Source: Psammoneis japonica (lineage: Eukaryota). From it: a stretch of DNA of 64,000 nt. Under the pieces are notes generated by a model. It was not told the DNA's origin. It ran no database searches and saw nothing but the letters and a program-made list of their open reading frames with translations. Below, in pieces: positions 21,683-43,762 of this stretch. Within the stretch, counting starts at the first letter, position 1. Every line of letters starts with the position of its first letter. The translations under genes and the position numbers were made by a program. The stretch is taken from NCBI GenBank assembly GCA_008632985.1, contig QPGO01000005.1, positions 372,001 through 436,000 of the forward strand, written 5' to 3'.

Positions 21683-21997
21683 GGTCAATCGAGAATTCAC
21701 TGTTCACTGTGGTCAAGGGTCAGAGGTCAGAAGTTGGAAGTCGCATCGCACGTTGCGCGCCTCGTGGAACTTTTGCATGCGAGTGCGCGACATTTTTTTG
21801 CGTTTTCTACGGTTACGGTAAAATGTACGTAGGAATTAGTAATAATTTGGAAAGTACCGAGTTCCCACGAATCTTTCACATACGAAATCATGGTAGTAAT
21901 TCTACGAATATACACAAAAAAAATGACAGTGATTGAGAAATTTAGCAACGGTCACGACACAAACAAAATCCGAAAATTCGCGCTCGTTTTTCGCTCA

Positions 21998-22292
21998 CAA
22001 CTGTCGTCTCGCACCATGTGTTTGTTGTTTGCCAAGCCAGAAGCCGTAATCTCCGAGGATGGCTCGCCCTTCCTCTGGATTGAGAGCTCGCTCTTGTTTG
22101 GCATTCCACAACTCATTTTGCTTGATGGTGCGTTGTCTCTCTTTTTCAACTCGTCGTCTCGCACGATGTGTTTGTTGTTCGCCAAGCCGGGGTGCCGCAA
22201 TGCCCAAGGATGGCTCGCCCTTCCTCTGGCTCTAATTGCCTGCTCTTGTTTGGTGTTCCACAACTCATTTTGCTTGATGGTGTGTTGTCTCA
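21998..22292. repeat. Tandem duplication, two copies of about 150 bp
   Basis: gtcgtctcgcac(c/g)atgtgtttgttgtt(t/c)gccaagcc...ggatggctcgcccttcctctgg...ttccacaactcattttgcttgatggtg at about 21998 and 22147. Confidence 0.9.
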
Positions 22293-22829
22293 AATGGCAG
22301 CGCAGGTGTTGCCAGCCAAGTCCGGAGGTCGGGGCAAATCGAATGCGTGTCTCCGGCCTTGAGTCCATGTCACTCTCGTGTCTTTGACCGCAGGAAGTTG
22401 CCTGTTCACTTGACCCGTCAGGTCACGGTTGTTGAAACAGACAGCAGCGTTCATCTGCGAAGCAGCAAGAGCTCGCCAAGCAGATCATGCCATTGACGGA
22501 ACGCGGGTTTGGGGTTCCGTCGCATCAGCATGACATGATGCGGCAAGTCTTCACTCGCAGGGAGTGTTGATTTAGAACGCGGTTGACTCGCAAGTTTTCT
22601 TGTTGTCTCCGTAGCACGTCCCCCCTTTTACATTCTTGTGTGTGACATTTTTCACTCTGAAGATGCGCAAAAGCTTGAGCTCCATCTTTTGATGGCGCTC
22701 TTGAGGCAACGTTGTCCTGCGCGACCGATTTCTGTCAACTTTTGACATTGACGTGTTTCAAACATTTGAAACACACTTTGAACCTTTGACACAGAAGCAG
22801 AAAGACTAAAAGCACCAGACAGCGTTCCT

Positions 22830-23110
22830 CATTTGCGTGCAAGTTGTTCCGCATGCAAGTCAATTGACTGTGATGACGGTCGCAGCGCTTGCATTGTTGT
22901 TGCGCAATTTGATGTCATCATTTCTGCATTTGCACCACACCGCTCTCTTTTTTCAGATGGGGTCCACGATGGGGTGTTTGTTGCAGTGTGCCCCAAGATG
23001 ACATTCAATGTGTGCTGGACCATTTCGTCACTGATCGCCTGCATGTTTTTAATGGATTCGTCGTGTTCTGCCAAACGGGCGGAGCAACAGAAGAATGTCA
23101 ATTCTAAAGT
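22830..23110 (-). mobile_element. Possible Mutator/MULE transposase remnant
   Basis: W...RERCG...MMTSNCATTMQALR resembles the MULE W...RYG...TSNxAExxN segment once Y->C is allowed. Short and degraded. Confidence 0.3.
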
Positions 23111-23429
23111 GGCTAGCTGGAACACTCTCCGAAAGGTTCTAAATTCGTGAGCTCATTTGTCTGACATTTGTCCTCTTTCTGAGGTGAAGAATCACCTGGC
23201 TGTGTGATGTTGTGTGCCTCCTTCAGCTGCACAACAAGTCTCCAATCAGATCCTCGAGCTTGTCTTCCAAGTTGGCCTTGAGCACGTCGACATGCACACG
23301 TCAGGGTCCACTGGAGGCTGTGAGATGAATGAAATTGATGACCGCATTGAATGTCGGGTTTTTCTTCATTCACAATCTTGAGGCCACAGACGATTCCTCG
23401 AGAGCGGTCTCTTGCTCCTTGCCATTGAC

Positions 23430-23900
23430 CTCCGTCAACGTGCAGTCCTCCCAAGGCAGGGATGCACAATTCCCAAGATGTTGGCCAAGAACAGCACAAA
23501 TTCAGATTTGGCAGCCATGCCCCCATCTGCACAAAGTTCTGAAACAGGAACTCCCGAGTCAGCGGCCGTGGTGCCACACACCTTGGAGCAATAAAATGCT
23601 GCCGCCTCTTTTGCTGCGCTTGCAACATTCGCCTTGGCATGACACCCGTGAGTCCAACAATCATTCCACGCGCACTCTCCTCCCATTGTGGAGCCAGCGA
23701 GCCAGCAAAGGCGGGGACAAACCACACCCCTCCATCGTCATTGGCTTAAGAAGCCAAATCTGCAATGTCTTTGGCGCTGTCACCGACCTGCAAGTTGTCG
23801 CGGAGCCATCCTACAATGGCCACAGAGCACCTCGAAGAGCAAAAATTGTTGGATCTGCCTTGATTTGGCAAAAAGGAGATGACAGGAGTCCACATTGTGA
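23430..23900 (-). pseudogene. Glycerol kinase (FGGY family) C-terminal fragment, frameshifted
   Basis: SVAIVGWLRDNLQV...DIADLA; WFVPAFAGSLAPQWEESARGMIVGLT; DSGVPVSELCADGGMAAKS...LANILG, spread over three frames. Confidence 0.85.
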
Positions 23901-26149
23901 AACATGAGGATTGTTCTGAGCACCCACATTCATCAAGAGAAAGGCCCCAGTTTGCATGCAATTCCAGAGACAGGACCAATCCTTCACTCAAATCATGCAT
24001 CCTTCAGCTCGCATGTGGTTGTCCAAACACACCCGAATCGGACGGTCGTTTGCGAATGTGCCCAATTGCAGAGCTTGCATCATTGCATGCATGGGAATGA
24101 GAACAGCAAAATTGAGCGTTTCGATGGCTTCGCCGACACAACAACAAGCCACGATTGTGCCGAGCACTGGATCTTCGCAAAAGAAATCGGCTTTGCCCAA
24201 CAAAGCCGCACCTGTGGATGAATCTTTCAGCAGGTCCAGCACATCCGAAGAAATTCAACTTCCTTGCTGCTTCAGAGGCAAATGACTCCAAGAATGGTGG
24301 TGCATGATTGTTTGCCGTCGGAATGATGTGACTCTGGAGAAAGCGATTGTCTTGGGACTCCATTCCCCACTCCCATTGTAAAGAGGTTTTGTTCTTTAAA
24401 TTCCCTTTCTTTCGATTGGGCATCTCTGTTATCGTCAATTCGTCAAAAATCAAGTCGAGCAGCAAAAAATCTAGAACCATGCGCTCAAGGATTGACGGGT
24501 TGCGTGTGTCGGCTAGAAAGGCTTGCCTGGCAAATCAACACGCGGCAGCTCTTCAATGTAGGCTAAAAGATTCACATGTCCCACTGCCGACGGGCACTCT
24601 GCTCTAACTCCCATAATCCATAAGAGCCGTAGACTGGATTGTCAATCAAGCTGTTGATGAACTGAAATGGAGTCTTCCAGACGTAGGCGAGACCAACAAG
24701 TGCATGGCAGGCTTTGATTTTCTCGGCGTTTCACCATACGATTCAGCCAAAATGTCAATTGATTTCTCTCTTCTACAGCTCGAAACGGCTCTTGCAGGCT
24801 GTGGCCATGGCATGTCACTGCAATGTCGATTTTAGTGAAGGAAGCACCTCGTGCCGTGGCCACGTTGAATGACATTCACGTTGGAACCAGGAAGAGCGAT
24901 GCCCGCTGAAAATTCATGAAACAAACGAGAAGCTGGTCGAATGTTTCGCTCCTCTCATGCATGCGCCAACAGTGGCAGCTTCCTCCTTGGGACGCAACAC
25001 GCAATTAGAAGGACATTCTTCTCCTGACGATGCAAGCAAGTTCAAGAATGTCTGCAGTGTCGCAATGAACAGGCTTGGGAAACAGCAGAGGCACTTGGTC
25101 TATCTGCATGGTGTTGTTGGCGATCATTTCAATCAACTCGGCAGCATTCAGCTGTCTTGGTGACTGCATTTACAACGGTGTCGTCTTTGTCATGTCTGAC
25201 ACCTCTCGATCAAAACACGCCCACGTCAGACAATTCAACAATGACAACGACAGGCACAGTCCATCCTGCTCCCGCCCACAAGAGCCGCGTTGACGATTTC
25301 GACACTTTGCCTCCCAGAGTTGGTCCTCTCCATGTTGCAAAATCTCTTCCTGCCAATCAACAGCGCTTTGTGCTTTGTGATTTACACCGGTGGGGCCCTC
25401 TGCTCTAGAGCTGGCTTGTAGAGAGCAGCAATTAGAGAGTCCATCTTGGGTCTCTGGTGTTGGACGGAAGAGGTGGGTCTGGGGAAAGGTGTGGCGGAAG
25501 AGTCGCGCGAAGTGTGCTGGGGGATGGAGAGAAAAAGGGTGGGCCGAGGGTGTGGACAGACGGTCGAGAGGAAGAGTTGGTGGGTGACAGTGGGATGGTG
25601 GAGGAGAAGGGCTTGATGCGCAGAAAGATGGGTGGAGAGGGCAAAGCGAAGTTGAGACTGAGGATTTGAGAGGCCCAGAGTGGAGGGGGGTTGAAGTTTG
25701 GCACGAGAAGCCGAAGCGGTCTTGAGAGAGCTGTTTCCACGCCACCACATTGGAGCTGGCAAGGAGGTCGGAGGGTGCAAGGAGTGAGTTGGTGAAGGCG
25801 GAGAAGGATCATGTTTGAGAGTTGGAAAAGGAAGAAGGACTTGTCCAGGGTGGTTCAGGAGGAAGGGGTGGGATGGAGGAGGGTGTTGTGGTGGAGGTGC
25901 CGAAAAAGAATGCGCGGAAATGGCAGCCGATCATGCCGCCACGGTGGTCGAAGACAAAAGGAAGAAGGAAGAGCCCGGCTTTGCTTCGGTCCCATTCATG
26001 AATCAATGCATCCAATCTTCCAATCTGATTTCCAAAAGCTCAAGCTGTGGTTGCACAGCACTGCGACAGTCGCCGTGGGTTTCTGCACACAAAACAGATG
26101 AAACCGTGAGCTGGGATTGCTCGCAAGACTCAGAGCATGAAGTTGTCCC

Positions 26150-29100
26150 AACACTTTTGAAAAAGGACCACAAATTCCCTCCAACCATGAGCATCACAAT
26201 TTGAGAATGACACCAAATTTGTGCGACAGCCTGCATGCATGCATCTGATGAAAAACATGCGGTGTCGCCATTGCAAAAAAAAGGGAGTCGTTGTTCGCTT
26301 CCTTCTCATGGCAAGTGGCACCTACGGCATCACTGCCAACTGCATTTGCTCCCTCTAGTTTGTCCCATCCACATTGCAAAGACACTGAGGATCTCACAAT
26401 GGTTGGCAAAGAATGCGTTGTTCAAGGTGACGAGGCACTGTCCAAAGATCTCAGGCGTGTGACGTTGACTGTTGATGAGTGCAACAAGAAAGCAGAAACT
26501 CGCGGCAGCTCCAGCAAGAGAACAGTGGGGTGTGACACAAATGAGCATGCACAGATGTGTTGCAGGAGAACGAGTGCAAGAAAAAGAAAAGGAAAAAACT
26601 GCTAGAGTCCTCAGCACAGCAGAGGAGAAATCATCCAATGATGGCAGTGCTGATGATGATGACACTCCTGACAATGATGCTGTGCCTTCCAATGATTTGA
26701 CCGCTGTTGTTGTCGCCTTCTGGGATGACACGTCCACATGGAACCTGTTCAATGCAGATGATGGAGAGGATGCAAAAAAGGCAATCAAGAAACAGACAGA
26801 TGAGTTGGCAGCTGGATTTTCTTTTCATGATGGATGGAAAGAAGTGATTGAAGGAGGTGATCCTGACAACCTGTGCACACCCAACAATGCTCATGTGATT
26901 CGATTGCAATGCCAGCATCTTGCAATCATGCTCAACTGTGCATTGAAGAAGCCACCAAAAAGGAACACTGCATGGCTTGACTGCTGTCAGCATGCAATTG
27001 ATGACCTCAATGGCACAGGTGTTAACTTTGTAAAAAGTCACCAAACCGCAGCTGCGTGGTGTTGCATCTTTAGAAATCTTAGTTCCTTTCCTCATCCCCA
27101 ACCAAAAGGAAAAGGTGACCCACCGACATTTGAAGCATGTCCAAAGATGAAGCGGAAATTCATTGAGTTTGTGACAGCAAACCTTTCTCGACTTTCTGCT
27201 GAGGTGGCCACAGATCACTTCCATGAAGTGCTTGTCCTGGAATTCTTAAAGAGAGAGAACAACAACCATCACAAGAATGGGGAAGACATCATGGAGTCAG
27301 AATGGCGGGAGTTCCTGTGAATCAGTGCAGATTGCTCACTGGGGAAAACCAACTGTGCACTTCTTCAGATGCAGTTTCCAACTGGATGAATCTGTTTGGT
27401 TTCCAGTGTGGGCCAAACAAAAAGATGCATGTGTTGATGATCATGAACATCCTGACAACATGAGGTGTGGAATGTGATGATCCATCAACATTTGATGAAA
27501 GAAGAACAAACCCTGTGTTGGATGTAACTTCCAAAAGCAACTGTCATGGTCCTTGTTGAAGCTGAAGCTCTCCCAGCAAAAATGGGGCATGAACACCAAG
27601 TCAATGGAGAAGATTTTATCGAGTGTCATGTCAATGCCATCGTTGACCTGGAAAGCATCATGCCCAAGCTGTCTGTGCAATTTCGTGGAAGTGAAAGTGT
27701 GAGAAAGGAGCCCAGTGTAAAGCCTCTCATGACATTTGGACAGGATGAGGCCATTTTTAAGCAATGCTTGCCAAGCACAAGCAGCTGGTTGGGTCCCAAA
27801 GGTGAGTGGCCACTGCTGCCCAAAGATGATGGAGAAGGCATGATGCAATCTCTGCTCCAATGTCACAAGGTTGGCCTCATTTGCAATGAAGACATTTTGG
27901 AAGAGCAGCTCAGAGAGACAAATGAAGCTGGAGCAGGCAAATGCCACACTGATGAAGATGCTGCAGAAGCAGTGTTCAACAAGAAGCAGCATGAGCCAAA
28001 GTTGAAGAAAAGTCCATTCCTCCACAAGTTTGAGCATGGAGCAAATGACGACAGATGCTGGAATTGCGATCACATGCTGGTGCGATTGGAGGATTGCAAT
28101 CTCATGCTGGTGCAATTGGAGGACTGCATGGATTGCTTGAAAGTGCTGTGTCACAATTTGTTGCCACTTCCTTTTTGATCATTCTTGCAGGCACAATGAG
28201 CAGAGAGTGGACAGACTGATCTGTGACAAGCACATGATGAATGCAGGAGTTGGCGGCAGTCAGAACAAGATGCACCCTTCTGGGATTCTTCAGGCAGAGG
28301 GTTTTCCAGGTTCTCATGCCAAAGCTGTTGGCATGTCATCTGCAGGACAAGTGCAAACAATGGCATTCAGTGAGGAAGACCAGGAGCCATGCTGGATGAT
28401 GCCAGAAGAATGAGAAGCAGAGAAATGTGACGCACCTGCAGAGAGACAAACTGAAACTTGGAAGTTCCTGTGTGATGAAATTTTTGACAAGCTTCTACAA
28501 AAGAACATCAAGAACGTCAGGGGTGAGAAAAAGGATGAGTTGATTGACACAGCAAAGAGCAGCAACACACCTGTCAAAGAAACCATTCAAAAGGCAAAGC
28601 ATGGATGGGCCGACAATCCAAAAGGATCAAAGCAAATTTTGCGTGAGCGAGGATGGATTGATCCCAACAACCCTGGAAAATGCACTGTGGATGGCACAAA
28701 GGGCAACAATGGAGAGATCGACAAGCCAACATCTCTCCTTCACTTGATGGCTGCTTGCAATGATTTTGTCAACAAAGAGACGTTGTTGCAAACGATGGGT
28801 CACAAAATGGGTGTGGCCATTGACAGAATGCCAAAGTGTCACCCAGAAATGGCTGGGGGGGCATTGAATGTTCTTGGGGACTTGCAAAGCAGTGTTGTCA
28901 TTTGAAACCTTTGTCAAGAAAGAGGGGAAAGCAAAATTTTAGAGAGTTGGCACAAGAGTCAATGTCATCAACTGCGCTCATGACTGACAGGGTGCGAAAG
29001 TTTTTGCAATGAGCACAATGACACATTTGTGCTTGCATGGTTCTTTCACACAACCTGATGTGTCTGAAGAGGTCAAGCATGGAGCCTTGTCTCCAGAGAC

Positions 29101-29200
29101 TGTTGAAAAGCTTGTCAAAGACTTCAAAATGCACCGCATTGTGATTGATTTTGACAAGGCTTTCATTGTGAGGAAACTTTTTGCAGGGTGAAAAGATGCT
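26150..29200 (+). mobile_element. Decayed DDE DNA transposon, IS630/Tc1-mariner-like transposase
   Basis: FGQDEAIFKQ (D1), FLFDHSCRH (D2, about 28167), KGSKQILRERGWID, and PKCHPEMAG preceding the catalytic E region. Many frameshifts and stops. TIRs not identified. Confidence 0.75.
28073..28127 (+). repeat. Short in-frame tandem duplication (about 30 bp) in the transposase
   Basis: catgctggtgcgattggaggattgc / catgctggtgcaattggaggactgc giving MLVRLEDC, MLVQLEDC. Confidence 0.85.
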
Positions 29201-29829
29201 TTTTTCTGGGAAATAAAACAATTTAGAAACTGGGTGCACCATGTTTACAATGTTGCTGGCAAATTTGCCATGGCTTTTTGCATGCAAAATAAATTTTCCT
29301 GCCAGCCATGCAGGACTGAGGCAATTGCACAATGAGCTGATGGATGGCAAGATGATTTGACTTTCTGATTTTTTTGTGCTGGAAATTTTGTGCGCGCTAC
29401 ATGCATCATCACTAAAAATCGGTGACATGATGGTGGCATGTTGTTGCAATGTTGGTCATGTCAGCCACATGTTCAAGAGTTTTTTGTCTTTATGGACATT
29501 CAGTTTGTCATGTTTGTGGATGTGTTCAGCCATGAAAGTCCCCGCCATGAACATCTGTTTGATGGAAAAACGTCGCACCAATGCCGAGCTCTGTTTTCGA
29601 CCTGTCACTGTCATGCACTCATCATTGAATGATTGAGACTTCATCTGGGGGACTTTCTTTACACATTTGTGCTTTAAACAGTGTTGTTGGTCATTGTGAC
29701 AAGTGCCCATTGCAAAGCTGTCCTGCAAGAGCTTCAGAAAAATGCCATCGTCATCATCGGCATCGACGGCAATTTGTCACGCAAATTGCAAAAAATGCAT
29801 GACTGTCATCTGTCCAACATTGCGCTGCT

Positions 29830-30070
29830 GTGTGCACATTGTGCGCACACCTTGGTGCAACATTTGGGTTGGTTGCAGGAAACGTAGTGTCGCCACTGCA
29901 AGAAAAAAAAGGCAGTCATTCCTTGCTTCCTTCTCATGGCAAGTGGCACCAAAGGTGTCACTGCCAACTGCATTCATTCCCTCCAGTTTGTCCCATTTGC
30001 ATTGCAAGACACTGAGGATGTCACAATGGTTGACAAAGAGCGCATTGTGCAAGGTGAAAAGGCACTGACC
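29830..30070 (+). repeat. Second partial copy of the 5' part of the DDE element (matches about 26200-26445)
   Basis: Shared gcttccttctcatggcaagtggcacc...tcactgccaactgcatt...agtttgtcccat...gacactgaggat(c/g)tcacaatggttg. Confidence 0.85.
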
Positions 30071-30469
30071 CAAGCAGATCAGAAAGATGATGCGGGTGAT
30101 TCTGGAGTTTCTGACATGAAGAAAAAGATGCAATGGCTCTCTGGTGCATTTGACAAGAAGAAAGAAGATGCTGCAGATCGTGCCCCTCAGCCTGCAAAGA
30201 AAGGGGAAGGCTCACTTGTCAGCTCATGCATGAAATGGCTTGACAAGACCAACAAAAAAAGGAGAAAGAAATGGCAACAAGTCCACAAGGAAAACCAACA
30301 GGGTTGCAACTTGTCAAGGATCAAATGAAGTGGCTCAATGAGACAAACAAGAAGGAGGAATCTCCCAGGAAAGGTGACTCTGTGAGGTTCAAATGAGTTC
30401 AATGCTTGCAAAAGATTGTGTGAAATGGCTGGATGAAGCAATCAAAACAAAACAAAACAAAACCTCTGT

Positions 30470-32900
30470 GTTTAAAGTGCTGCTGTGCTTCCACCCTGCA
30501 ACTCTGGCAACAAGCCAACCCACACCCCCAACACACTGATGTGTGGCAGGAGCATGTGGCAATCAGCCAGATTCAGCATCCCCCATGGGAGATGCCATGC
30601 CAAAGTGGCTGACGATGGTTCTTGTGCCTCTCTGGCAGCCAAACATTTGGCTTCTTTTGTGCTGGACTCAAACATGGGTTTGACCATGGCCAGCCAATTG
30701 CAAAGGCAGTGAGTGGAGTGCAGAAGATGTTCATCAACCAAGTCGAACAACTGCAATTGATCCTTTGCCAGGTGGCCACCCTTGCGCAAATGTGTTGCTT
30801 TCACCTCTGCTTCTGCATTGTGATGTTGCAACAATTTTTCTGGTCTCTGAATCACAGCCATGTGCGGCATCATCATTGTGGTCATCCCACAGCTCCCGCC
30901 ATTGCTCCCATGTGTGATTGCCTGCTGTGGCAGCCCAATCCAGGCGTTGCTCTCATTCAGACAAACTCTGACATGTGCCGCTGGCCAGCAGACACAAAAA
31001 TTGAGTTTTGTTCCACAAAGTGGAGAGTCTGCCACTGAAAATTTGATGCCAACCAATGTCCTCTTGAGATCAGAAGACTGCTGCCATGCTGTGATGGAGG
31101 CCCTCTGCATGCAACATCTCATTTTGGAACCACGACTCAAGAGCGGTCAAGCGCAAGTCATGCAAGGATGGAGAAGCATTTGTGTCATCACATTTCTTGC
31201 AGAGTCTGAGTGAGAATGTCCTGCACCAAGCTTTGTTGTGAGGGCAATGGAGAATGTGATCTCCATCCTCCACAGGATGTTGACAATGCATGCAGCAGTC
31301 CAGACAGGTTGGGTTGTGTTGGTGAACTGTCTTGTTTGTTGGCAAGAGATCCTGAATCAACTTGACAGTGCTCACTTTCTGGTGGATTTTCCTTGACAAT
31401 GGCTTTGCGTGCACTTTCCAATTGATGGAGTTGTGTGCTGCATCCGTCCAACCATTCTTGTCCTTCATGTGGCTGACAAGAGCCAGGGCGGCTGGAAGCT
31501 TCAAATCAAAGAGTGGACTTAAAGTTTGATGATGCAGCGGAATCCTGAACAACCAAGTTTGCAAGACAATGAGGCATGCAAGGAGCCAGCAGAGTGTCAC
31601 CAGAACAGTGACCTTGGCATCAACCAGCCAGTTTGTCAGCCCACACTTTCAACTTGGCTGGCAATGACAGAGCATCATACAGAGTGTTGTCGTCCTGATG
31701 GCCTTTAACCCAGAAGACCTTTGCTTCAGTGCCAGAGCAATCATTGGCTGAGACACCCGAGATCTGCTCTAACAACAGGTGCATTTTGTGAAGAACATCC
31801 CATTCAGCGGCAAGAGAGTTTGCAGTGTGATGGCAGATGAAGCAATCTTGATTAGAGTCTGTCTCTTCCTCATTGGGAGGCAGCGGAGGTGTGGCTTGGA
31901 AATTGGACATGTTGCAGACCAAGGAGGAGTTGTTGCAGCACAGGTGCACTCCAAGACCAAAACCTCTGTGACAGCATTGCATCAGTCTGAAAAGAAAGCA
32001 AAGAACAGATGAGAGCCCATGTGCTTTGGCCCCATGTGATGAGGGACAAAAACTGAATGCTGGTCCAGCACAATCAACTGACAGTGTGCCATCCATGGAC
32101 AAGGTCCAGCCGAATGTGCCTTGAAATTCAACCACGGAACCGTCGCTTCCAACAGAGGCTCGGGAAGAGGCTGGTGGCTCAGCAATCTTGAAGACAGGTC
32201 AATGCACAGCAATGTCTTCAAACAACAGTGACTCCCAAGGTGGAAGGGCCTGTGGCATCGATGCAAACAACGTCGTGCATGCCTCATGGAACTTTGCCGC
32301 ATCTTGAGTCTGCCACTGTTGGGGAGCAGGGGGTGTGGTGAGGAGCAAACTGACTCTGCAGGGAGATGATCATGTGCTTGAGAATGGCAAAGACAAGACT
32401 TTCAGCTTTTCCAAGGGGACTCTGTTGGCAATTCATGGTCTAAACTGATGGGAGCAATTTGCAATGGAATGAAAACAAACAGCGCCACCAAATCATTGGT
32501 GCTGGGTCATGCCAGCTGCCAGCAGTGCTGCTGCTGTGCAGCAATTGGCACAAAGAAGAAGCTTGCGCAGCAGCCAACCCATGCTGGTTGCTTGCAACAA
32601 ACCTTGGACATCATTCAGTCATGCCTTGTGGCATGCTGGGAGCTGCTCTGCAGCAAAACACAGCATCTTTGGTTGACAGGGCCGCGCCAGTGCTTTCACC
32701 CAGAGCCCAGAGCAATGATGCTGCACACTTCTGGTTGCTGCCATTCTCCACATTCCACTGCACAGCAGGCAAAAAGTTGCTGCAGGTCAATCTCAATGAG
32801 GGACTCACTTGGCTGGAGGTGGTGGACTTGCAAAAACCAGTCAGTCTCTCGCTCTGACACACCACCTCCTGCTTTTTTGGCCCGTTGAGCCCATGGACCA
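30470..32900 (-). mobile_element. 5'-truncated non-LTR retrotransposon (diatom Ambal-like) remnant: RNase H and C-terminal Cys/His knuckle; RT domain not recognised
   Basis: SDGSVVEFQGTFGWTLS...CAGPA...SSHGAKAHGLSSVLCFL, LCCNNSSLV, FWVKGHQDD...ADKLA, KNGWT...INWKVH, CMHCQHPVEDGDHILHCP. (AAAAC)4 at about 30444-30463 marks the 3' junction. Confidence 0.8.
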
Positions 32901-34376: not shown

Positions 34377-35199
34377 TTGGTGTCCTTGGTTGTGTCGGCA
34401 TCACATCATGCTCCAATCTTTTGTGTGTTTCAAAGAGAGTCATTTTTGTGACAGCTTTTCATTGTGAGGTGTGAAAGCAAAATCCCTGGCAAAAAACAGC
34501 AGTGAAGTTGTCAGTTTGGCACAATTTCTTTGGCAATTGTGGCACAATCTGCTGATTCTGTTCATCTGTGTGCAATGTTGTGGCACATTGTTTCACATCC
34601 TTGGCAGTTTTTGTCAACTTGTCTGAGTTTCGAGAAATGACAAAAAGCACCAAATGAAAGCATCAGCTTGCTGTTGTTTGCTGCAAGCTGTCTGCTTCCA
34701 TGTCACACTTCTGACCTTTTGCCTTTCCCATGGCATTTTTTGTTGGCATGTGCAAAGCCCTGGGTGTTGTTGGTGCCTTCTTGCAATGTCATCATTGCTT
34801 GTGTGCTGCTTGTGTGCACCCTGTGTTTTTGTGTTTTTTTGTGGTGGTGATCATGTGCCTTTTTGCCATGGAGCCAAGCCAGTCAGCCTGACAATCATTG
34901 TCTGTGTCATCATTTTGCAAGTTGTCATTCACAAAAAAAAGCCTTTTGTTGCAGCCAATTTTGAAGTTCACAGGTTGTTTGAATCAACTTAGATGAACCA
35001 CTTTGTTGGTTTTCATTGCTTTGCTGTTTTGGTTGTGGCTGTGAGTTCTCATTTGTTTGGCAGCTCGTGGATGTTGAACATTGCACCTCAATCAAATGAA
35101 GTGCATCTGTTTTCAAAGAAGATTTGTGTCTCAGTTTTCACAACCTCAACCAGCTCTTGTTGAGAATGAAATTTTCGCATTCATGCCAGTCTGCACAGC

Positions 35200-36630
35200 T
35201 TGTTTGTTCATTTGTTTGGGGGTGCTGTTGCAGCTGATCTTTGCAACTGGCCAATCCACACATGTGCAACAAAACAATCCCACAGGGCTGCAGAGAGGAA
35301 CAAGAGCAACAGCCCCCAGAGACATGGTGCACTGCAGCTGCAGCGCCTCCTGTCAATGCCAGCCCTCCCTGACAACTTGTGGCCCATGCCAGTGTGATCT
35401 CCAGCAGGTCAGTTCAGACTTGAGCTTCCCAGCTTCAGAGCAAAGTGGTGGCCCCATGATGGCACCAACCAACCCAACAAGCAACAGCAGACTGAGGGTG
35501 CTGGTGGTCTCCAGTGGACCCCCTGCAATGCTCCAAGAATTGTGGTTGAGTGTTGAGGACAAGCAGCGCAAGAAGGCTGGTGTTGTGCACTTGTGGCACC
35601 CTTCACATCCCCTCCCACCAGTGAGAAATGCACACTTCACAAGTCCCAACTCCAGCACAACAAGATCCCATGATGGCATCAGCCAACCTGACAAGAACTG
35701 CAAGCCGAGGGCACTGGCAGTGTCTGGTGTGGACCACAGGCAACACTTTGAGAACTGTGGCTGAACATTGCAAGGTTGATCTTCTTGTGGCATTGTGGCA
35801 CCATGCTGTCATCTTGTCCCCAACAGCAGAGTGCATGACTTTCCAAACTCTGCAGTGCAGGGATCCCATGACGGTGCCAGCCAACCTGACAACTGCAAAC
35901 TGAGGGCATTGGCATCTCTGGCAGATCCCAGGTGACACTTCAAGAGCTGTGGCTGGACATTGCAAGGTTGATGTTGTGGTGTTGAGTTCCATGTCCCATT
36001 GTCCCCACCCAACAGGGGCAGATTTGTGCCTCCAAACTCCAGAGTGAAAAGACCCCGTGACAGCACCAGCTGACCTGACAACAGCAAGCCAAGTGCATTT
36101 GTGATCTCTGGTGGACCCTGGGTGACCCTTTGAGCACTGCAGTTGGACATGCTTGAAAGGTTGATGTTGTGGTGTTCCATGTCACCTTGTCCCCCCCCCG
36201 ACATGAGCAGACCACTTGAACCCCCAAACTCCAGGATGAAGTGACCCCATGACAGTGCCAACCAACCTGACAACAGCAAGCTGAGGACACACTGGCAGTC
36301 TTTGGGGGGCTCAGGTGCAACTTTAAGAACTGTGGCTGAGCATTGCAAGGTCAATCTTGTGGCGCTGTGCTCCCATGTCATGTTGTGCTCAACAGCAGCA
36401 GACTGACTTTCCCAAATCCAGAGTCATGTGCAGCAATCCCATGATGGTGCTGCCAACCAACTCATCAACTTCTGGCAGAGGATGCTGGTGGTCTCTGGCA
36501 GGCCACAGGCAACACTTTGAAAATTGCGGCCAGGTGCTGACTGCAAGGGAGGTCAATCTTGTGGTGTTGTGGCCCCATGTCACCTTGTGTTCCCAACAGG
36601 AGCAGAGCTGAACTTCCAAACTCCAGAGTT
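35200..36630 (+). pseudogene. Decayed gene for a secreted-type protein with six tandem repeats of about 190-215 bp (about 64 aa)
   Basis: Units begin ccc(a/g)tga(t/c)(g/a)g..cc at about 35452, 35667, 35865, 36055, 36246, 36438 and read roughly PHDGxxQPDNSK.R.L.VSG...F(E/K)NCG..CKV. Upstream hydrophobic LFICLGVLLQLIFATG. Confidence 0.6.
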
Positions 36631-37939
36631 GCTTGTTCACAAAGGTTTTGATTGCTGAATGGCAGCGGGTGAGCAAAACTTCAAAAAACAAGGTGCTGGA
36701 AATGCCAGAAACATGGAGTTGTTTTGAAGTGGAAAATGGCTTGAGGGGAGAGTGGAGAAATCTGCATCAGCATTTTTGAAACAAGCTTGTCTTTGTTCAA
36801 AGCTGGCATGTTTCTTGCAGAGCAACAAAGAAGAGCTGCGCACACTGCACACAATTTGGTGTCTTCACTGGCAGAAATCCACTGCCACAGCTGAGACAAA
36901 GTGCAATGTGCAAGCAGCATGGACCAAAACAAAAACACAAGATCAAAATCACAAACATGTTGGCCCCAATGACTTGGCACCCCAAAAAGTGTTTGCATTG
37001 GCTTGTTGTCTGTTTGAAGGTTCAAAGTGGTGCTGAACAAAGCACAGATTGACCCACACTGTGAACTTTGTTGTGATGTTGGAATGCACCAAATTGTGGT
37101 GTGATGATGATGAGGCTGAGTTGGTTGATGAGCACTGGCAGCAAAACAGGAAGTGTGAAGGATGACAGGGATTGAATGATGACATGGACATTGTGGGGAA
37201 TGCTTGACATTGCTCATTGGGTCTGTGGGCAGAAGGAAAGGACTCAACTTTGCAGCTGTGTTGTCTGTCAAAAGGGGGCAGTTCAAGAACAAGAAGTTCA
37301 TTTTGAAAGGAAAGCCTTTTCATTGCTGTCAGATGTGATGAGGGCACAGTGAATTGTGACAGAGGTGTGCTGCCATTGTGCAAATGACAGATTGGCAGCT
37401 GAGTTGTGTGGTGCTTGATGCAACAAACAGACAAATGCACCAGCAGAAACACTGAAAAAATGCAATGGACAATCAAGCTGAAGCCCTGAAAAATGCATCA
37501 GCTCTGAACAAGATGCCAGGCTACAAAACAAAACATTGCAAATCTGTGACTGTTGGAAAAGTCAGCTGTCAACCTCAAATGACAACTTTGGCAATGCCAG
37601 ATTTGTGGCTAAAAATGAGCAAGTGTGAGAACATCATCCAGCAGCACAGCTGCAGTGACCACATTGGTTGACCTTGAAAAAATCATGACACCTGTGACCC
37701 TGTGGAGAGTGTGATCACAGGTTAAATTTTTTTGACTCTTGTTGATGGATCTTCTTGTTCAGAGCAAAAAGATGTCACAGATGTTTCCAAAGGGAAGGAC
37801 ATGCAACAACACGCACCAAGACTCAAACTGGCTTCAACTCCAGAATCTTGCTGCCAGCTGTGCCACAGTTCTCTCCCCCCCAGTCTTTTCCTGTCTTCCC
37901 AGCACAGTTTGATGATGCACATGCCACCCTGAGTTGCTC

Positions 37940-38630
37940 ACACCCTTGATTGTCTCAGAGTGGTCTCATGGTTGGCTCTCAGCACAGTGCAGTGCACTTG
38001 GTCAATGCCTTCATCTCATTTTGCTTTCCTTCAGCATTTGACAATGTGGTCTCTGTTTCTTCATCTGGCGGGCACAGCCAAGCCCAAGTTGTTGAATCAT
38101 CAACAGCAGAAACATCTCAGAGCACCCCAGGTAAATGTTGAGATGTGCTTTGCAAAAATGCACTTTTTGTCAAACTCATTTGTTTGGGTTATTTCCTGCA
38201 GCAGCAAAGTGGCTTCTTGCTCTGTTGCAACAAGTGTGGCACCATCAAATCATGGGAGCTGTGGCAGCACACACAATCTGGTGACCCCGCATCCTCATTT
38301 GGCATGTCTCTGCCAATCAGCTGGGTTGGGTTCACTGTTTCTTGTTCCAAGTCATCAGATGTGGTGGGTGGAGGAGCTGTGATCAAATGTGCTCTGCTCA
38401 GAGAAAAGTGCGCAGAGTTGACATGCCTGTCTGCTGCACCAAGCCAAGCACCACAAGAAACTTTGGGGTTGGAGTTGATCATGTCTGAGCCCAGCTACAA
38501 AGATTTTTCTTCATGATCTTCTGGCAACAGCAGTGTGATTGTTGGGACATTGTGCAGGTGCAACCCAATGTGGGACAGTGTCCCTGAGAGAAAAACAATG
38601 CTGTTGGCACAATTGCAGCTGAGCAAATGA
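37940..38630. repeat. Partial copy of an unidentified repeat family, matching about 42640-43380
   Basis: Shared ttcatctggc...cacagccaagcccaagttg, ctgg(g/a)ttgggtt...ttcttgttccaag, ttggagttga...ctgagc, gcacaattgcagctgagcaa (also at about 41445). Confidence 0.75.
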
Positions 38631-39374
38631 TCTCACACACTTTCTGTGTAAAAAGATTTTGAGAGCCCAAGGAGAGGAGGTGTGGGAGACATGAGGGGCA
38701 GAGCAGATAAAGGCATTGAAGTGGCAACCAAAATGGAGGGGGGGTCAGGTGGAGCAGAGAGAGAAGGCAGCAGAGTTGTGCAGGAGAGAGAGGCAACAAA
38801 GGGCAGGTTTTGGCCACAGCAACCTTGGGGGCACCAAAAGAGTTCTCAAGGCAGTTGTCAACACACAGGAGAAAGTTGTCAAAGGCAAAAAGGGAGCTGG
38901 GAACTTGAAAGACAAAAGGGAGGGGAGGTTTGCCAGCAGCTGCATGGTCACAGAGGTGTGCATGAATGCAAAAGACAAGAGCTGGGGATGGCATGTGAAT
39001 TTGGGGATTCACGGTGCAGGCAAGTGCAGGAAAGGAAAGAACAACAGGTTGGAAGCAGCGCCAAGCTCATGGAGGAAGCCTCAGTCCTGTGAGGAGGGCA
39101 AACAAAGAATGGGAGCCTGGGGGGAGAGGGGCCAAAGGATTGAAGAGAAATTGGGCAAAACAGGGTGGCAGCAGAAGGGTTGCAAATGGAGGAAGAAGGG
39201 GAGCAGGAAGAAGGCTCAGGTGGAGACAGCAATTGGAGGAAGGGCAGTGTGATGCCAAGCAATGTCTCACAAGTCCATGCCAGAGAGAGACCAGCACAGC
39301 CAAGGCAGAGGCAGATGTGGTGACAAGTTTTGAGGACACCAGGTTTGAGCAGAGTCAAAGAGTGGGGTGCAGGA

Positions 39375-39860
39375 ATGTGCACGAATGATGCAAGGAGCAT
39401 GAAGCACTTTCAGAGTGCTCTTGCTGCTCTTCATTTTCTTCAACAATTTCACATTGATGGCTGCTTGTTTTGCTTTTGCAGTTTTTTTGCTCTTGCTTTC
39501 TGGGTGACCTTTGTTGCAGATGCTTCCAATTTTTCTTGTTCTTTGTCCTCCCCTTCTTTGCAGTCTTGTTCATCATCACATTCTTCCTCTTTGCCAAGCA
39601 CATCTGCAGAGCTGCCATGAAGAACAACCTGAGAAGGACAGTTCTGCATGAATGCAGAGCTGCAAAATTGGGGGCAGAAGGATGATTCACTGCATCATCC
39701 AACATCTGCCTCTGCCATCACAAGAATGATCGCACTGCCATGGTGGTGGTGAAGCCCAGCAAAATTCGTTGACCTGTCATGGTCAATTGACTGGTGGTGG
39801 TGTCACACAAAAGTCACAACACATTGCGCACCTTGTGGAACTTTGCCATGTGTTGTGTGT
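39375..39860 (-). pseudogene. Mutated copy of exon 1 plus upstream sequence of the 20920-21682 gene
   Basis: Colinear with about 21284-21790; LHGSSADVLGKEEECDDEQDC versus LRGGSADVLGEEEEYDDEYDY. Confidence 0.92.
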
Positions 39861-40399
39861 TGACTCTGTTTGCTGTTGAGGAGCTGGGGGGTGAGGACAA
39901 GAGCAAGCTGCAAAAAAGATGATGGGTTTGAGAAATGCAAGAACAACACTTTCAGCCATTCCAAGGAGAGGGTCATTTTTCAGAGTCTAACCCGGTGAGT
40001 GCAATTTTCAGTGGAATGAAAACCAAAAGCACCACATTGAACATCATCAGCCACTCAGCCCTTCCCTTGACAAACCTTGAAACATCATTCAGTCATGCGC
40101 CATGTTGCTGTGCTGAGAGAGTTGCTCCAAAGTGACAAAACATGACATCTTCAGTTGCTGGGGCCATGGCGTGCCTGTGGGCTTGTCCCAAAGCTGTTTT
40201 GTGGTTGTTGCACACATCATTGTCATCATCATCTGTGTGCCTTTTACACCTGCTGCAATGAGCACAGAGTTGCTGCAACCCAATCTTGAAGTTTTGGTTG
40301 ACTCGTCAAAGCGCATTTTTGAGAGACAAACAATGCATGTGGCCATGCAGAGTCTGCAAGCCACCTGCTTTTTGCTCATCATTTTCTTGAACTTTTGCT

Positions 40400-42480
40400 C
40401 ATGTGTGTGCACTTGCTCTTTTCTTGATGACAATCAACTGGCAAGAAAAAGACATGCCAAGACCACTTTGATCACAGGACATGAGGGTTGCATGGGTGCT
40501 GCAAACAAAACACACACATGCACACACAAAAGATCTCAGCCAGCATCCTCTGCTTTTGGTCAACAACCATGTGCTGGCCACCTTGACCCCAAAACATGAG
40601 ACAAACAAGTGAGTCCTCTTTGCCCTCACATCACCTTTCAAGGCATGCATCACCTGTCACTGCACCATTTTTCCACACAAGTGTGGCAACACACCACACC
40701 TCAGTGGCACAAGAAAGTTGCAATGCAAGCAAGAATCAAATGAGCAAAGTGGCAACAGCAGCATGCCAGGTGTGCACCATCAAGAACTCTGAAGAACAGA
40801 GTCCACAAAAAGTTGTGTTTGTGCAAAGAAGGAACAATGACACACAGAACAACAACGCAGCAAGGAGCCATGCACTGGCTGAAATGCATTGCATGTGGAT
40901 GACTTGTCACTTGCTTTTCATCCATGGGGCAAAGTCAAACTGAGCCACTGCCACTGCTGGCCTTTTCAGAAGAGAAGAAAACCCTGCCAAATTTTGAGGG
41001 TTTGCAGATTTGTGCCAGCACACCTGGAGAAAGCTGTTGTCATTTTCAAACCAGCCCCCAATCATTTTCTCTTTTGCTCTTCCCTCCTCAAACCTTTGCC
41101 AGATGACTTGGCCCTTTTCAGCAATCTCTCTCTTGGTGCCAAACAATTTTGGAGAGTGAGTGAGAGGTGCAGACAAGTCACCCAAAGAAAGTGTGCAGAA
41201 GGAAAGGTCCTCTTGGAGTTTTCACACATTTGCAGCTTTGCAATTTTGCCATGGAGCTTGTGTGCAGAATTCCATGTGCTGGCACCACATGCAGCCCCAC
41301 CCAGGGCACTGCACTCCATCTCAAGTGCCACAAGGAACTTAGGATTGGAGTTGACCTGAGCTCAGCTGCACAGACTTTTGTTCTTGTCTCCAGAAACTGG
41401 TGTGGCAGCATGGCTGGGATGTTGTGCTGTAAAAAAAAATGTTTGCACAATTGCAGCTGAGCAATGAACTCACCCGCTCATGCACAACGGAGCCAATTCA
41501 GAGTCTTCAAGCCACCCGCTTTTCACCCCCATCATGTTCTCAAACTTTTGTCTTGCACGTGTACTTGCTTTTCTTGGTGACAATCAGCTGGCAAAAAAAG
41601 ACATGCCAAAACCACTTTGGTCACAGGATGGGAGGGCCATGTGGGTGCTGCAAACAAAATGCACACACAAAAGATTGCAGCAAGCATCCTCTTCTTCTGG
41701 TCAATGACCATGCACTGGCTGCCTTGATCCCAAAGCATGAGAGACAAACCTGCAGATCCTTTTTGCCATCACATCACCACCTTTCAAGGTGTGCATGATC
41801 ACCTGCCACCACACCATTTTTCCATGCAAGTGTGTCAACACACCACACCTCAATGACACAAGAAAGTTGCGATGCAAGCAAGAATCAAACAAGTGGAGTG
41901 GCAGCACAAGCAGCACACCAGGTGTGTCACACCATCAACTCTGAAGAACAGCCCACAAAAGAAGTTGCTTGTGCAAAGAAGTGAGCAATGACACACAACA
42001 ACAACAACAACAACAGTGAGGAGCCATGTGCTCTGGCTGACATGTGTTTTGGCACATGGATGACTTGCCACAGTGCTCCACAAGTGGAGGGCTTGAGTTT
42101 CATCCATGGGGCCAAGTCAAACTGAGCCACTGCTGCTGGCTCAAAAGAGAAGAAGCCCTGCCAAATTTTGAGGGTTTGCAGATTTGTGCCAGCACACCTG
42201 AAGGAAGCTTTTCTCATTTTCAAGCCCCCCCCCCTCCCNNNNNNNNNNNNNNNNNNNNNNNNNNNNNNNNNNNNNNTGTTCTAAATTTCTCAGGCTTGGG
42301 TGGCAATGTGGGCTCTTTTGCTCTTCTGTCAAATGACCTTTGCCAGATGACTTGGTCCTTTTTTCACAGCAATGATCTCTCTGCTCTTGGTGTCAAACCA
42401 ACTTGGAGAGTGAAGAAGAGAAGCGCACAAGTTGCCCAAAGGAAGTGCACAGAAGGAAGGGTCCTCTTGGAGTTTTTCTG
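40400..42480. repeat. Diverged tandem copies (offset about 1.15-1.25 kb) of the unidentified repeat family; third fragment at about 33100-33350
   Basis: 45-bp identity 40982-41026 = 42156-42200; gacaatca(a/g)ctggcaa...aaagacatgccaa at about 40430 and 41580; caccatttttcca at about 33133, 40663, 41813. Confidence 0.85.
42239..42275. other. Assembly gap (N run)
   Basis: Run of n after a poly-C tract. Confidence 1.
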
Positions 42481-43762
42481 AAGTGAAGGACATGATGAGA
42501 GAATCAAACTGGGGACTCAGCCCCAGAATCTTCTTGCGCTGCTGCTGACACTGCACCCCTGAGTTCTCTCCTCCAAGAAAAACCATCTTCCCAGTGCTGC
42601 TTTGGCAGCGCATGTGCCATCTTGAGCTCATTCTTGATTCTTGCCTTGTTGTTGGTCTCATGGCTGGCTCAACGCAGTGTGCATTTTGGTTGATGCCATC
42701 TCATTGCACCCGCGCAATGCTTCCAGCAGTGCTTGACAACAGCTTCTTTTTTCATCTGGCAGACACAGCCAAGCCCAAGTTGCCAAATCTTTGGCTGCAG
42801 AGACAACTTCACAGAGGCCTCAAGCAAAAAATTTGAATGTGCGGCAGAAATGCACTCTGTGACAAACTTTTGTGTTTGAGCTTGTGCCACAAAGAGCAGC
42901 ACCAGGGAGCTTCTTCCTGATGCTGCGACAAATGTCTCTGAAAATGTGCTTGGGCAGGAGCTGTGTGCTGCGGTCATGGCACCCATGAACTGGCAACCCC
43001 ATCACTGTTTGTCTCTCCTGTCCATCACCTGGATTGGGTTTACTTCTTGTTCCAAGCCAACCAAATGTGTGGTGATTGAACATTTGCTTGTTGACGAAAA
43101 CAACAAGAGTGCAGCAGCAGACTCCCAGTGCTGTGCATTCTTGACATGTGGTGTGCCTCTCTGATTTGACATGCCTGTTGCTGCTGCACTGCATCTCAAG
43201 TGCCAAAAGGAACTTGGGTTTGGAGTTGAGCTGAGCTCAGCCACACAGATTTTTTTCTGATTGCCAAAAACTGGGCAGCAGTGTGGCTGGGATGTTTTGC
43301 GTGAGGTTGCACCAAGAACCACACCTCCAGCTGGTGCTGAGCAAAAAATGTTTGTGCACAATTGCAGCTGAGCAATGGGGACTCACCCGCTGATGGACAA
43401 CGGGGCCAATGATGAGAATGGCATGCCACAGCTGTGCGCAAGATGGACAACTTTTCTCAAGAGGACCAATGCCCAGTCCCCTTGGCGATTTCAAATCAGA
43501 AAAAAAAATGTTGAACGCATTGTGTCTGTTTTCTATGTTCATTCTTAAAAGCACTGATAAAATATGATTAGCATTGCATCTTTCCGTACAGTATTATCAT
43601 GATTGTGACAAATAACATTATTAGTTTTTTGATAGAATCATTAGTATTATTTTATTCGTAGGCGAGGCATAGGTGAATTGTGTCAAGCGCGACAGCGGCA
43701 TCTGGTCCGCGGCGGCTGGCCATCATGTTTTTGACCATGAAGGTGCGTGTCCCGCAACAACG

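Follow-up and report, generated by a model that had tools for sequence, protein, structure and literature searches.

Near-complete, context-specific loss of TpA alongside CpG in a repeat-rich domain of the diatom Psammoneis japonica

The closest described relatives of the phenomenon considered here are systems that mutate repeated DNA in particular sequence contexts. In the repeat-induced point mutation (RIP) of ascomycetes, which is premeiotic, depends on RID or DIM-2 and acts only on duplicated sequence, the changes are solely C:G>T:A and fall mainly at CpA, TpA rises while CpA/TpG and G+C fall, and silencing follows or is associated with the mutation; RIP also has a size threshold, and short repeats escape it. 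To our knowledge, all described eukaryotic targeted hypermutation, comprising RIP, the RIP-like process at TpCpG and the action of APOBEC on retroelements, deaminates cytosine and drives A+T upwards. For the Pucciniomycotina, the passages available from Horns et al. (2012, PMC3318451) describe a RIP-like hypermutation of repeats with C>T strictly at TpCpG, and for diatoms those from Hoguin et al. (2023, PMC9998398) report transposable elements (TEs) to be CG-methylated and silent, with DNMT5a maintaining methylation in Phaeodactylum. The locus reported here is a domain of about 21.6 kb in the diatom Psammoneis japonica, which resembles these systems in its dense context-specific transitions and departs from them in the near-complete loss of TpA. 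It lies in a stretch of 64,000 nucleotides, referred to below as the window (NCBI GenBank assembly GCA_008632985.1, contig QPGO01000005.1, positions 372,001 to 436,000 of the forward strand), and is divided as follows, with survival values calculated for ancestors taken to be flank-like in composition.

21944..43533, no strand assigned: hypermutated domain; observed/expected ratio (o/e) of TA 0.06, of CG 0.29, of CA and TG about 1.75
21944..26500, no strand assigned: block A; TA survival 0.20 (37 vs 183 expected), CG survival 0.80 (208/258)
26501..43533, no strand assigned: block B; TA survival 0.08 (55/685), CG survival 0.16 (151/965)
42239..42276, no strand assigned: assembly gap, 38 N within the domain

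The preliminary description of this DNA, made from the letters alone, had pointed to some 21.6 kb poor in TA and CG and rich in TG and CA between normal flanks, and the counts bear it out. Between positions 21950 and 43530 (21,581 bp) there are 92 TA dinucleotides, where the flanks, with 893 in 21.9 kb and 816 in 20.5 kb (o/e 0.59 and 0.58, respectively), predict about 870. CG occurs 359 times in the same interval (o/e 0.29 vs 1.01 and 1.00 in the flanks), and CA and TG reach 1.72 and 1.76, compared with 1.07-1.14 outside. The G+C content is the same inside and outside (0.482 in the domain vs 0.473 and 0.478), and AA, CA and GA show no depletion, AA standing at 1.24 in the domain vs 1.16-1.19 in the flanks. 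The edges appear sharp in both 500-bp and 200-bp bins, with dense TA ending at 21943 and restarting at 43534, and the domain occupies the entire gap between two divergently oriented genes. The two losses are separable, because TA and CG survive at 0.20 and 0.80 in block A and at 0.08 and 0.16 in block B; a simple coupling of TA loss to CG loss or to methylation age therefore has to be given up, since block A lost its TA and kept 80% of its CG.

The direction of change and its place of action can be read from copies and duplicates of domain sequences, of which the following are used.

21134..21703, minus strand: left flank gene; small membrane-type protein, no Pfam family, normal TA and CG
39378..39790, no strand assigned: mutated pseudogene copy of flank positions 21284-21692 (410 bp, 75% identical)
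21919..22834, no strand assigned: high-copy repeat; summed word depth 2,500-5,700 vs ~60 for single copy
40345-41059 / 41496-42233, no strand assigned: direct duplicate, 78% identity
35645..36629, no strand assigned: tandem array, five units of ~192 bp

The left flank gene is a genuine cellular gene with 208 homologs at E<=0.001, and its copy within the domain has retained none of the 13 TA dinucleotides of the normal copy (nine are now CA, three TG and one AA), 12 of the 13 changes being T:A>C:G. Likewise, only 3 of 30 CG are kept, 17 having turned to TG and five to CA. The remaining 43 mismatches comprise 15 transitions and 28 transversions, and divergence outside pyrimidine-purine (YR) steps amounts to 10.6%; outside TA and CG the divergence of the domain copy is thus ordinary, and an excess of transitions is absent at non-YR steps. 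AA is kept at 19 of 30 positions, with just three changes from AA to AG. All 13 TA are gone at a non-YR divergence of 10.6%, and TA has thus changed at least about 12 times faster than the overall background in this pair.

Further copies are found among the contigs of a DNA run, X1, as assembled at k=31 in Logan, which also provide support for the window sequence itself. Of the 31-mers sampled from 30001-40000, 90% are present in X1; its contigs span 30 of 30 bins of 21501-41500 at a single-copy word depth of ~58-74, and they include near-identical pieces of 1862 bp with six differences, 1600 bp with one, 1831 bp with five and 895 bp with three. Such depth and contiguity in k=31 contigs suggest accurate reads, which do not misread modified bases. 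The domain sequence is independent of this single assembly, with the k-mer contigs reproducing it at ~60x. Two other runs were compared: X2 (30 Mb of contigs, same sample) matches only 21501-24168, a span made up of the left flank gene plus the opening 2.2 kb of the domain with the high-copy repeat, and the contigs of X3 give no match to the region compared.

When X1 contigs of at least 90% identity are taken as the other copies, among which paralogs and alleles are inseparable, they differ from the window by A>G at 74, T>C at 61, C>T at 58 and G>A at 57 places, compared with 4-12 places for each kind of transversion. Among the 40 listed of 323 differences, TG or CA in the window corresponds to TA in the other copies at eight positions and to CG at 12; the opposite sense is seen once for TA and six times for CG, and 13 differences are of other kinds. 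Other genomic copies of the 21919-22834 family carry TA at 22202, 22523, 22540, 22544 and 22558, at all of which the window has TG or CA, and the families are therefore not equally TA-free throughout the genome. A metagenome scan with a 27-nt TA/CG-free word from the high-copy repeat gave 0 matches. Between 23166 and 26187, at sites covered by a single X1 contig (depth ~39-64), 13 differences are listed, and 11 of them are transitions that fall on CG, TA, TG or CA steps; examples are TA>CA at 24559 and the neighbouring pair 25336/25337, where TG>CA changes both bases. If these differences reflect alleles or strains, as they may, the processes were active recently.

The duplicates within the domain place the mutation after the local duplication. 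In the direct duplicate 40345/41496, 18 adjacent double swaps between CA and TG are found among 92 mismatches, and such a swap is the footprint left when one ancestral TA or CG is resolved separately in the two copies, on one strand or the other. A duplicate outside the domain (61458/62049, 21% diverged), which serves as a control, has no CA/TG swaps among 113 mismatches, about equal numbers of transitions and transversions, and no excess of TA or CG decay. In the tandem array, 27 columns consist of YR steps throughout and are either uniform or mixed between TG and CA, and 17 of these are mixed and 10 uniform, compared with two mixed and seven uniform at the RY control steps; relics in single units still display the ancestral CG in three columns and the ancestral TA in one, the latter in the slow TTAA context. 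The mutation thus struck the DNA in place, after local duplication, inside the domain and not genome-wide: in place because in-domain duplicates resolved the same sites independently, and not as a genome-wide spectrum because flank DNA outside long open reading frames (ORFs; 16 kb) retains TA at an o/e of 0.65 and CG at 0.99, and TA across codon boundaries in the flanks stands at 0.58. The second context-specific transition put forward in the preliminary description, T:A>C:G at TpA on either strand, is accordingly seen from four sides, namely the paralog, the other copies, the in-place duplicates and the flank TA level of 0.65. Two outcomes that the preliminary description had named as refuting it, family copies equally free of TA and an assembly unsupported by reads, are contradicted by those other copies and by the X1 contigs, respectively.

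Both losses follow rules set by neighbouring bases. Survival of TA is lowest at ATAT (0 against 62.6 expected), ATAG/CTAT (0.011), ATAC/GTAT (0.018), GTAC (0.025) and ATAA/TTAT (0.078), and rises through CTAC/GTAG (0.11), GTAA/TTAC (0.12), CTAG (0.17) and CTAA/TTAG (0.35) to TTAA (0.41). These values are fitted well by a model in which the strands mutate independently and additively and the rate of each depends on the base 5′ of the T of that strand, or of its C in the case of CG. For TA the rates are 2.51 after A, 1.64 after G, 0.78 after C and 0.38 after T (likelihood-ratio test statistic 86.3, 3 degrees of freedom, against a single rate), and for CG they are 0.83 after A, 0.75 after T, 0.69 after C and 0.22 after G (statistic 42.6). 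Sites with a known ancestor follow the same pattern, as a purine precedes the mutated T in 16 out of 20 events and in nine of the 11 competitions between a purine and a pyrimidine, the base 5′ of the mutated C is T in 15, A in nine, C in six and G in four cases (n=34), and the spared C has a 5′ G in 17 of 34. In IUPAC notation, the rule of the TA arm is T>C at R-T-A, equivalent to A>G at T-A-Y, and that of the CG arm is C>T at H-C-G, equivalent to G>A at C-G-D. At R-T-A the per-strand rate of the TA arm is 2-3 times that of the CG arm. The local skews between TG and CA (78:47 at 37001-37500 and 46:80 at 40501-41000) would follow from both rules working on strand-asymmetric ancestors, with which a TCGC-rich example agrees.

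The sparing of C after G is most evident at GCGC, which in block B survives at 0.72, compared with ~0.1 in most contexts and 0.03 at CCGG, often as TGCGC(A). Survivors of this kind in block B lie, for example, at 29823, 29844, 30785, 36839, 38411, 39827, 42537 and 43437. They may reflect protection of G-C-G, or new CG arising by rare T>C at G-T-G, and the sparing itself may come from the preference of a methyltransferase or of repair.

The two rules alone suffice for the composition of the domain. When both processes are simulated on flank sequence, the o/e values of all 16 dinucleotides in the domain are reproduced at constant G+C, including values that were not fitted (GC moves from 1.00 to 1.17, with 1.23 observed, and AA from 1.17 to 1.23, with 1.24 observed), and the trinucleotide correlation with the domain rises from 0.674 to 0.975. 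In the tetranucleotide fit, the rule of each strand's own 5′ neighbour leaves a sum of squared errors of 11.9, compared with 19.0 for a 50/50 choice and 34.3 for the reversed rule.

As to what the domain is made of, it contains multi-copy repeats, a young unmutated miniature inverted-repeat transposable element (MITE) and mutated fragments of cellular genes, and the following elements are needed for the argument in addition to those above.

34162..34378, no strand assigned: MITE; perfect ~25 bp terminal inverted repeats, depth ~9,920 vs ~60
24379..24833, no strand assigned: near-normal patch; 15 TA in 455 bp, normal CG, low copy (bin depth ~167)
23438..23737, minus strand: glycerol-kinase (FGGY) remnant; match to PDB 2d4w, E 6.6e-6
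31073..31648, minus strand: zf-RVT hint; weak match, E 0.004, below the Pfam cutoff, with the multi-copy bin 30172-30838 directly 3′

The repeats are evident from k-mer depth, which against ~60 for single-copy sequence sums to ~2,500-5,700 over 21501-22834, to ~2,000 at 30172-30838 (bin ~2,025) and to ~9,900 at 34174-34840. The left end of the high-copy repeat, marked by loose ends at 21919, lies within 25 bp of the domain edge, and a 152-bp tandem duplication occupies 21998-22291 inside it. The stretch 31506-32839 is now single-copy (depth ~58, at >=90% identity) and equally TA-free. The element at 34162-34378 agrees with the definition of a MITE in being short, non-coding, bounded by terminal inverted repeats and present in high copy; one contig skips 34163-34444, perhaps because the insertion is polymorphic or because the surrounding sequence occurs elsewhere without it. 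The MITE also carries an internal motif resembling the B-box of tRNA genes (GGTTCGATTCC); neither ARAGORN nor Rfam finds a tRNA in it, and no Rfam family exceeds threshold in the entire 64-kb window. Terminal repeats around the patch 24379-24833 were looked for and not found, and the patch may be a younger or a spared segment.

With TAA and TAG gone, TGA is the only stop codon left in the domain, and because only TGA stops remain there are many medium-sized ORFs on both strands. A Pfam scan in the standard code was directed at the 157 stop-to-stop ORFs with a minimum length of 70 aa and covered 150 of them, leaving out two at the left edge and five at the right end, and found no solid TE domain among those scanned, the zf-RVT match at 31073-31648 being the single hint of a TE protein. 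A search of the zf-RVT ORF against longer proteins gave no homologs, a protein atlas search with 30475-31146 gave no usable match, and a homology search with the 283-aa ORF at 26469-27317 likewise returned no homologs. The glycerol-kinase remnant retains more of its origin, as the conserved RVDGGM reads CADGGM in it, which fits CGN>TGN together with GTA>GCA, and the neighbouring frame 23116-23745 matches the preceding part of FGGY_C. A deacetylase-like ORF at 22832-23152 (Pfam E 0.0016, no PDB match) was considered and is unconfirmed. A foreign or viral origin of the domain is ruled out by the copies of the genome's own sequences within it. A centromere role was also considered and is not adopted. 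The earlier characterization of the domain as transposon debris thus stands in part: k-mer depth and the MITE speak for repeats, whereas a solid TE domain was not found, the one zf-RVT match is weak, and fragments of cellular genes (glycerol kinase and the copy of the left flank gene) make up some of the material.

We propose that repeats and duplicated gene fragments form a silent island here, between two divergent genes of a raphid pennate diatom, in which two strand-symmetric, context-specific transition processes would have run in place nearly to completion. The first, C>T at H-C-G, would be deamination of 5-methylcytosine (5mC) in CG-methylated silent chromatin. The second, T:A>C:G at TpA, in which the changing T has a 5′ purine or, on the other strand, the changing A has a 3′ pyrimidine, is the faster one and is able to act where most CG is still present; it would be the work of an enzyme drawn to chromatin that is silent or repeated. 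Recruitment of an enzyme, rather than polymerase error or spontaneous damage, is suggested because the TA arm is fast, dinucleotide-specific, strand-symmetric and domain-confined, and targeting by residence in such chromatin fits the sharp promoter-adjacent edges as well as the TA-free stretches that are now single-copy. The natural substrates of TadA/ADAT enzymes have U directly 5′ of the target A, and the TadA fold can be made to deaminate A in DNA, as in engineered adenine base editors; the best guess for the chemistry is that a TadA/ADAT-type deaminase might turn adenine to inosine in DNA. The outcome would be a permanent loss of coding capacity, with Tyr codons and the stops TAA and TAG removed and Arg CGN turned to Cys or His, at unchanged G+C.

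Leaving the choice of enzyme aside, we put the probability of this statement as a whole at roughly 0.6; that the phenomenon alone is real we regard as highly probable. Judged from sequence, adenine deamination as the chemistry of the second arm is a tentative choice with the odds leaning against it, and modification of thymine, for example oxidation to 5-hydroxymethyluracil (hmU) or 5-formyluracil (fU) mispairing with G, is unlikely; other chemistry takes the remaining probability. A little short of an even chance is given to the wider proposition that diatoms possess a genome-defence mutator without known counterpart, in which a recruited enzyme, likeliest a natural DNA adenine deaminase and alternatively a thymine-modifying one, would convert T:A to C:G at TpA (R-T-A / T-A-Y) and thereby erase Tyr codons, TAA/TAG and TATA-like elements at constant G+C, as a mirror image of RIP beside 5mC decay.

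Several observations weigh against the proposal or limit it. First, the evidence comes from one locus, the survival values depend on ancestors being flank-like, X1 is possibly the source sample of the assembly and its library type is off record, and whether A or T is the altered base is indistinguishable from sequence alone. Next, some DNA inside the domain has escaped: the 455-bp patch keeps its TA sites, which lie in mixed contexts including fast ones (ATAA, ATAC), and the MITE is unmutated, with 10 CG and three TA in the 200-bp bin from 34,200. In the high-copy family, TA-bearing copies account for ~40-90% of the depth at the five sites named above. Because the MITE, the patch and many family copies keep TA, the process would have to be slow, episodic, length-dependent or stopped. 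Further, window position 22131 is CG where 10 of 10 other contigs have TG, and some of the TA and GCGC sites counted as survivors may instead have arisen anew. Finally, the fine order among purines 5′ of T differs between two measures: G-T-A was mutated over A-T-A in five of five direct competitions, whereas the survival rates rank A first.

Of the two arms, that of CG needs no new mechanism. Symmetric loss of CG to TG and CA, as in the decay of 5mC in silent repeat DNA, is what the domain displays, with an o/e of 0.29 compared with 1.0 in the flanks and 22 of the 30 paralog CG now TG or CA, and by analogy with the methylated TEs of other diatoms the domain itself would be CG-methylated. In contrast to such decay, which cannot remove TpA, the domain has lost TpA as well, and it spares G-C-G strongly (GCGC 0.72 in block B), which is not known to us as a feature of passive 5mC decay. 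The hypermutation of Pucciniomycotina repeats, as far as the available passages describe it, is similar in making C>T at CpG under the influence of the 5′ base, and the CG arm of the domain favours T and A and disfavours G at that position; however, the rates at A-C-G and C-C-G (0.83 and 0.69) are near that at T-C-G (0.75), with G-C-G at 0.22, which is not a strict TpCpG rule, and those passages have no TpA arm in the fungi.

Two further processes had been put forward for the TA arm in the preliminary description and can be set aside. Errors of a Pol-eta-like polymerase, known from phase II somatic hypermutation as WA>WG, are similar in changing A to G after T, but WA covers AA as well, and AA in the domain is at 1.24 vs 1.16-1.19 in the flanks, kept at 19 of 30 paralog positions with only three AA>AG, and the A that changes prefers a 3′ pyrimidine; the near-complete conversion of a single dinucleotide is also unlike polymerase errors, and this spectrum is ruled out. 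Biased resolution of T:G mismatches, or GC-biased gene conversion alone, would hardly account for rates that exceed background more than 30-fold, and restoration of CG would be expected from it.

The likeness to ascomycete RIP deserves closer comparison, as both involve dense context-specific transitions over a sharp-edged block of repeated or duplicated DNA, with coding capacity destroyed and duplicates of cellular genes included. The composition differs: the domain has lost TpA by T:A>C:G and gained CpA and TpG at constant G+C (TA 0.06, CA 1.72, TG 1.76, G+C 0.482 vs 0.473-0.478), and the changes are not exclusively C:G>T:A, given 12 of the 13 TA changes in the paralog pair and the 8 of 40 listed differences at which other copies restore TA. 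We know of no RID-type enzyme that makes T>C. A RIP-like trigger is nevertheless conceivable, in which bursts upon recognition of duplications, for instance in a sexual phase, would be followed by CG decay through methylation, the CG arm possibly being the work of a diatom DNMT4, which is related to RID. Such an origin would agree with the position of the high-copy repeat end within 25 bp of the domain edge, with the mutation of duplicated cellular-gene fragments besides repeats, with the near absence of TA where CG is 80% intact, as an early burst predicts, and with the sparing of the 217-bp MITE, like that of short repeats under RIP; the passages available of PMC9998398 report the diatom DNMT4 as RID-related and of unknown function. 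On the other hand, RIP mutates both copies of a duplication, whereas the paralog at 21284-21692 is unmutated just outside the domain, which could be due to selection if the gene is functional; TA persists in many members of the high-copy family, the single-copy stretch 31506-32839 is as TA-free as the rest, and T>C is beyond any known RID-type enzyme. The duplication rule of RIP agrees with the edge and the gene fragments and is at odds with the flank paralog, the family copies and the single-copy stretches. A RIP-like trigger appears unlikely, though it retains some weight.

Within an enzymatic second arm, the altered base could be thymine instead of adenine. Oxidised thymines mispair with G, and a TET/JBP-type dioxygenase or other thymine modifier acting at silent chromatin might make 5-hydroxymethyl- or 5-formyl-uracil at R-T-A and so produce T>C. 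The flank rule is equally simple when stated for the pyrimidine strand, as a purine 5′ of T, and both arms would then target 5-methyl-pyrimidines at YpR palindromes. Against this, evidence for hmU or base J in diatoms was not found among the papers listed in a literature search, mostly on dinoflagellates and other non-diatoms, the available passages of PMC6313786 give no TpA context, and sequence cannot tell a thymine change from adenine deamination. We consider a thymine modification improbable, and less so than the more remote readings below.

That no targeting is involved, the domain being simply old unconstrained DNA under an ordinary neutral spectrum that favours TA>TG/CA and the flanks being held by selection, finds some sympathy in the moderate TA poverty of the flanks (o/e 0.58-0.59), which would allow a weak genome-wide bias. 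It is very improbable, however, when the 16 kb of non-ORF flank DNA keep TA at 0.65 and CG at 0.99 and TA at codon boundaries, a synonymous-type position, stands at 0.58, when the outside duplicate diverged by 21% without excess decay of TA or CG and without CA/TG swaps, when the domain copy of the left flank gene lost 13 of 13 TA at 10.6% non-YR divergence with fewer transitions than transversions, and when TA is plentiful in the young MITE and in the promoter-proximal DNA at either edge.

The known A-to-I enzymes and tools, namely ADAR, TadA/ADAT, the ADAT-based mRNA editing of fungi and the base editors derived from TadA, share with the TA arm the change of A to G with T or U 5′ of the A, and in the domain T directly precedes the changed A, TA being at 0.06 with AA, CA and GA not depleted. 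The natural enzymes among them work on RNA and on one strand, in contrast to genomic DNA mutated on both strands after in-place duplication. Premutated insertion, in which retroelement transcripts would have been hyperedited A>I at UpA by an ADAR- or ADAT-like enzyme and then reverse-transcribed, would account for the strict T (U) 5′ of the edited A, typical of ADAT/TadA and ADAR, and might draw on the single weak zf-RVT remnant. It is barely credible, since TG and CA products stand next to each other on a single strand and obey a strand-symmetric rule instead of a sense-strand-only A>G preceding insertion, tandem and local duplicates were mutated independently after they had arisen in place, the loss is continuous over unrelated pieces and gene fragments in both orientations up to sharp edges, and a 3′ pyrimidine is preferred in place of the 3′ G of ADAR.

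A sequencing artefact, with modified bases at 5mCpG and at modified TpA misread differently on each strand, could yield random TG or CA at symmetric sites and might appeal to the N gap and to the unrecorded library type and possible shared source of X1, but it deserves scarcely any credence given the X1 k-mer contigs at ~60x with pieces of up to 1.8 kb at 0-6 differences, unexpected from error-prone reads, the indels and ordinary transversions by which copies also differ, the decay of coding remnants beyond TA and CG sites, and the normal reading of the MITE and the 455-bp patch within the domain.

The proposed two-arm process belongs to a known kind, the targeted hypermutation of repeats, and its TA arm would be categorically new if the chemistry is confirmed. 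The preliminary description knew of no named mechanism for it, and in the full-text literature, with most subscription journals outside reach, we likewise came across no account of hypermutation that removes TpA, whether in diatoms or in other organisms. Erasure of TpA by T:A>C:G needs a chemistry other than cytosine deamination, on adenine or on thymine, and if enzymatic it would amount to genome defence of a new class, perhaps through a natural DNA adenine editor whose context is T-A-Y. Such a process would explain how diatom repeat islands may be inactivated without AT enrichment and be missed by scans for GC or RIP indices, and it might give a role to orphan diatom enzymes such as DNMT4. 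The signature by which further islands could be found is depletion of TA and CG with TG/CA at about 1.75 and G+C unchanged, and both flank rules are concrete predictions for biochemical and genetic tests.

The surroundings of the domain are those of an ordinary eukaryotic gene region. The flanks carry intron-poor genes, among them Topo II, pantoate-beta-alanine ligase (panC), threonine dehydratase and SKIP/SNW, and the TA-rich upstream DNA of both bordering genes adjoins the domain. Besides the left flank gene, two features are listed here.

13339-17181, minus strand: Topo II; two ORFs, 14629-17181 and 13339-14589, ~40 bp apart
43673..45907, plus strand: right flank ORF; 744 aa, no Pfam match, TA-rich upstream DNA starting at the domain edge 43534

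The ~40 bp between the two Topo II ORFs are presumably a short intron, and the protein is nearest to those of raphid pennate diatoms, with 64-69% identity to Nitzschia, Mayamaea, Seminavis and Pseudo-nitzschia and 73% for the best matches. TA is also moderately scarce in the flanks, at 1-21943 and 43534-64000 (o/e 0.58-0.59, and 0.65 away from long ORFs), which leaves room for a weak bias in the same direction across the genome. The control duplicate is a tandem one at 61458-62615 with ~74% identity, which covers the minus-strand ORFs 61355-61828 and 61901-62392. Finally, the segment 52059-54794 is GC-rich (up to 0.60) and holds two long minus-strand ORFs (453 and 438 aa) with no Pfam match; it contains internal repeats at 54050-54408, and CG is locally very high in it (55 per 500 bp) and TG very low.

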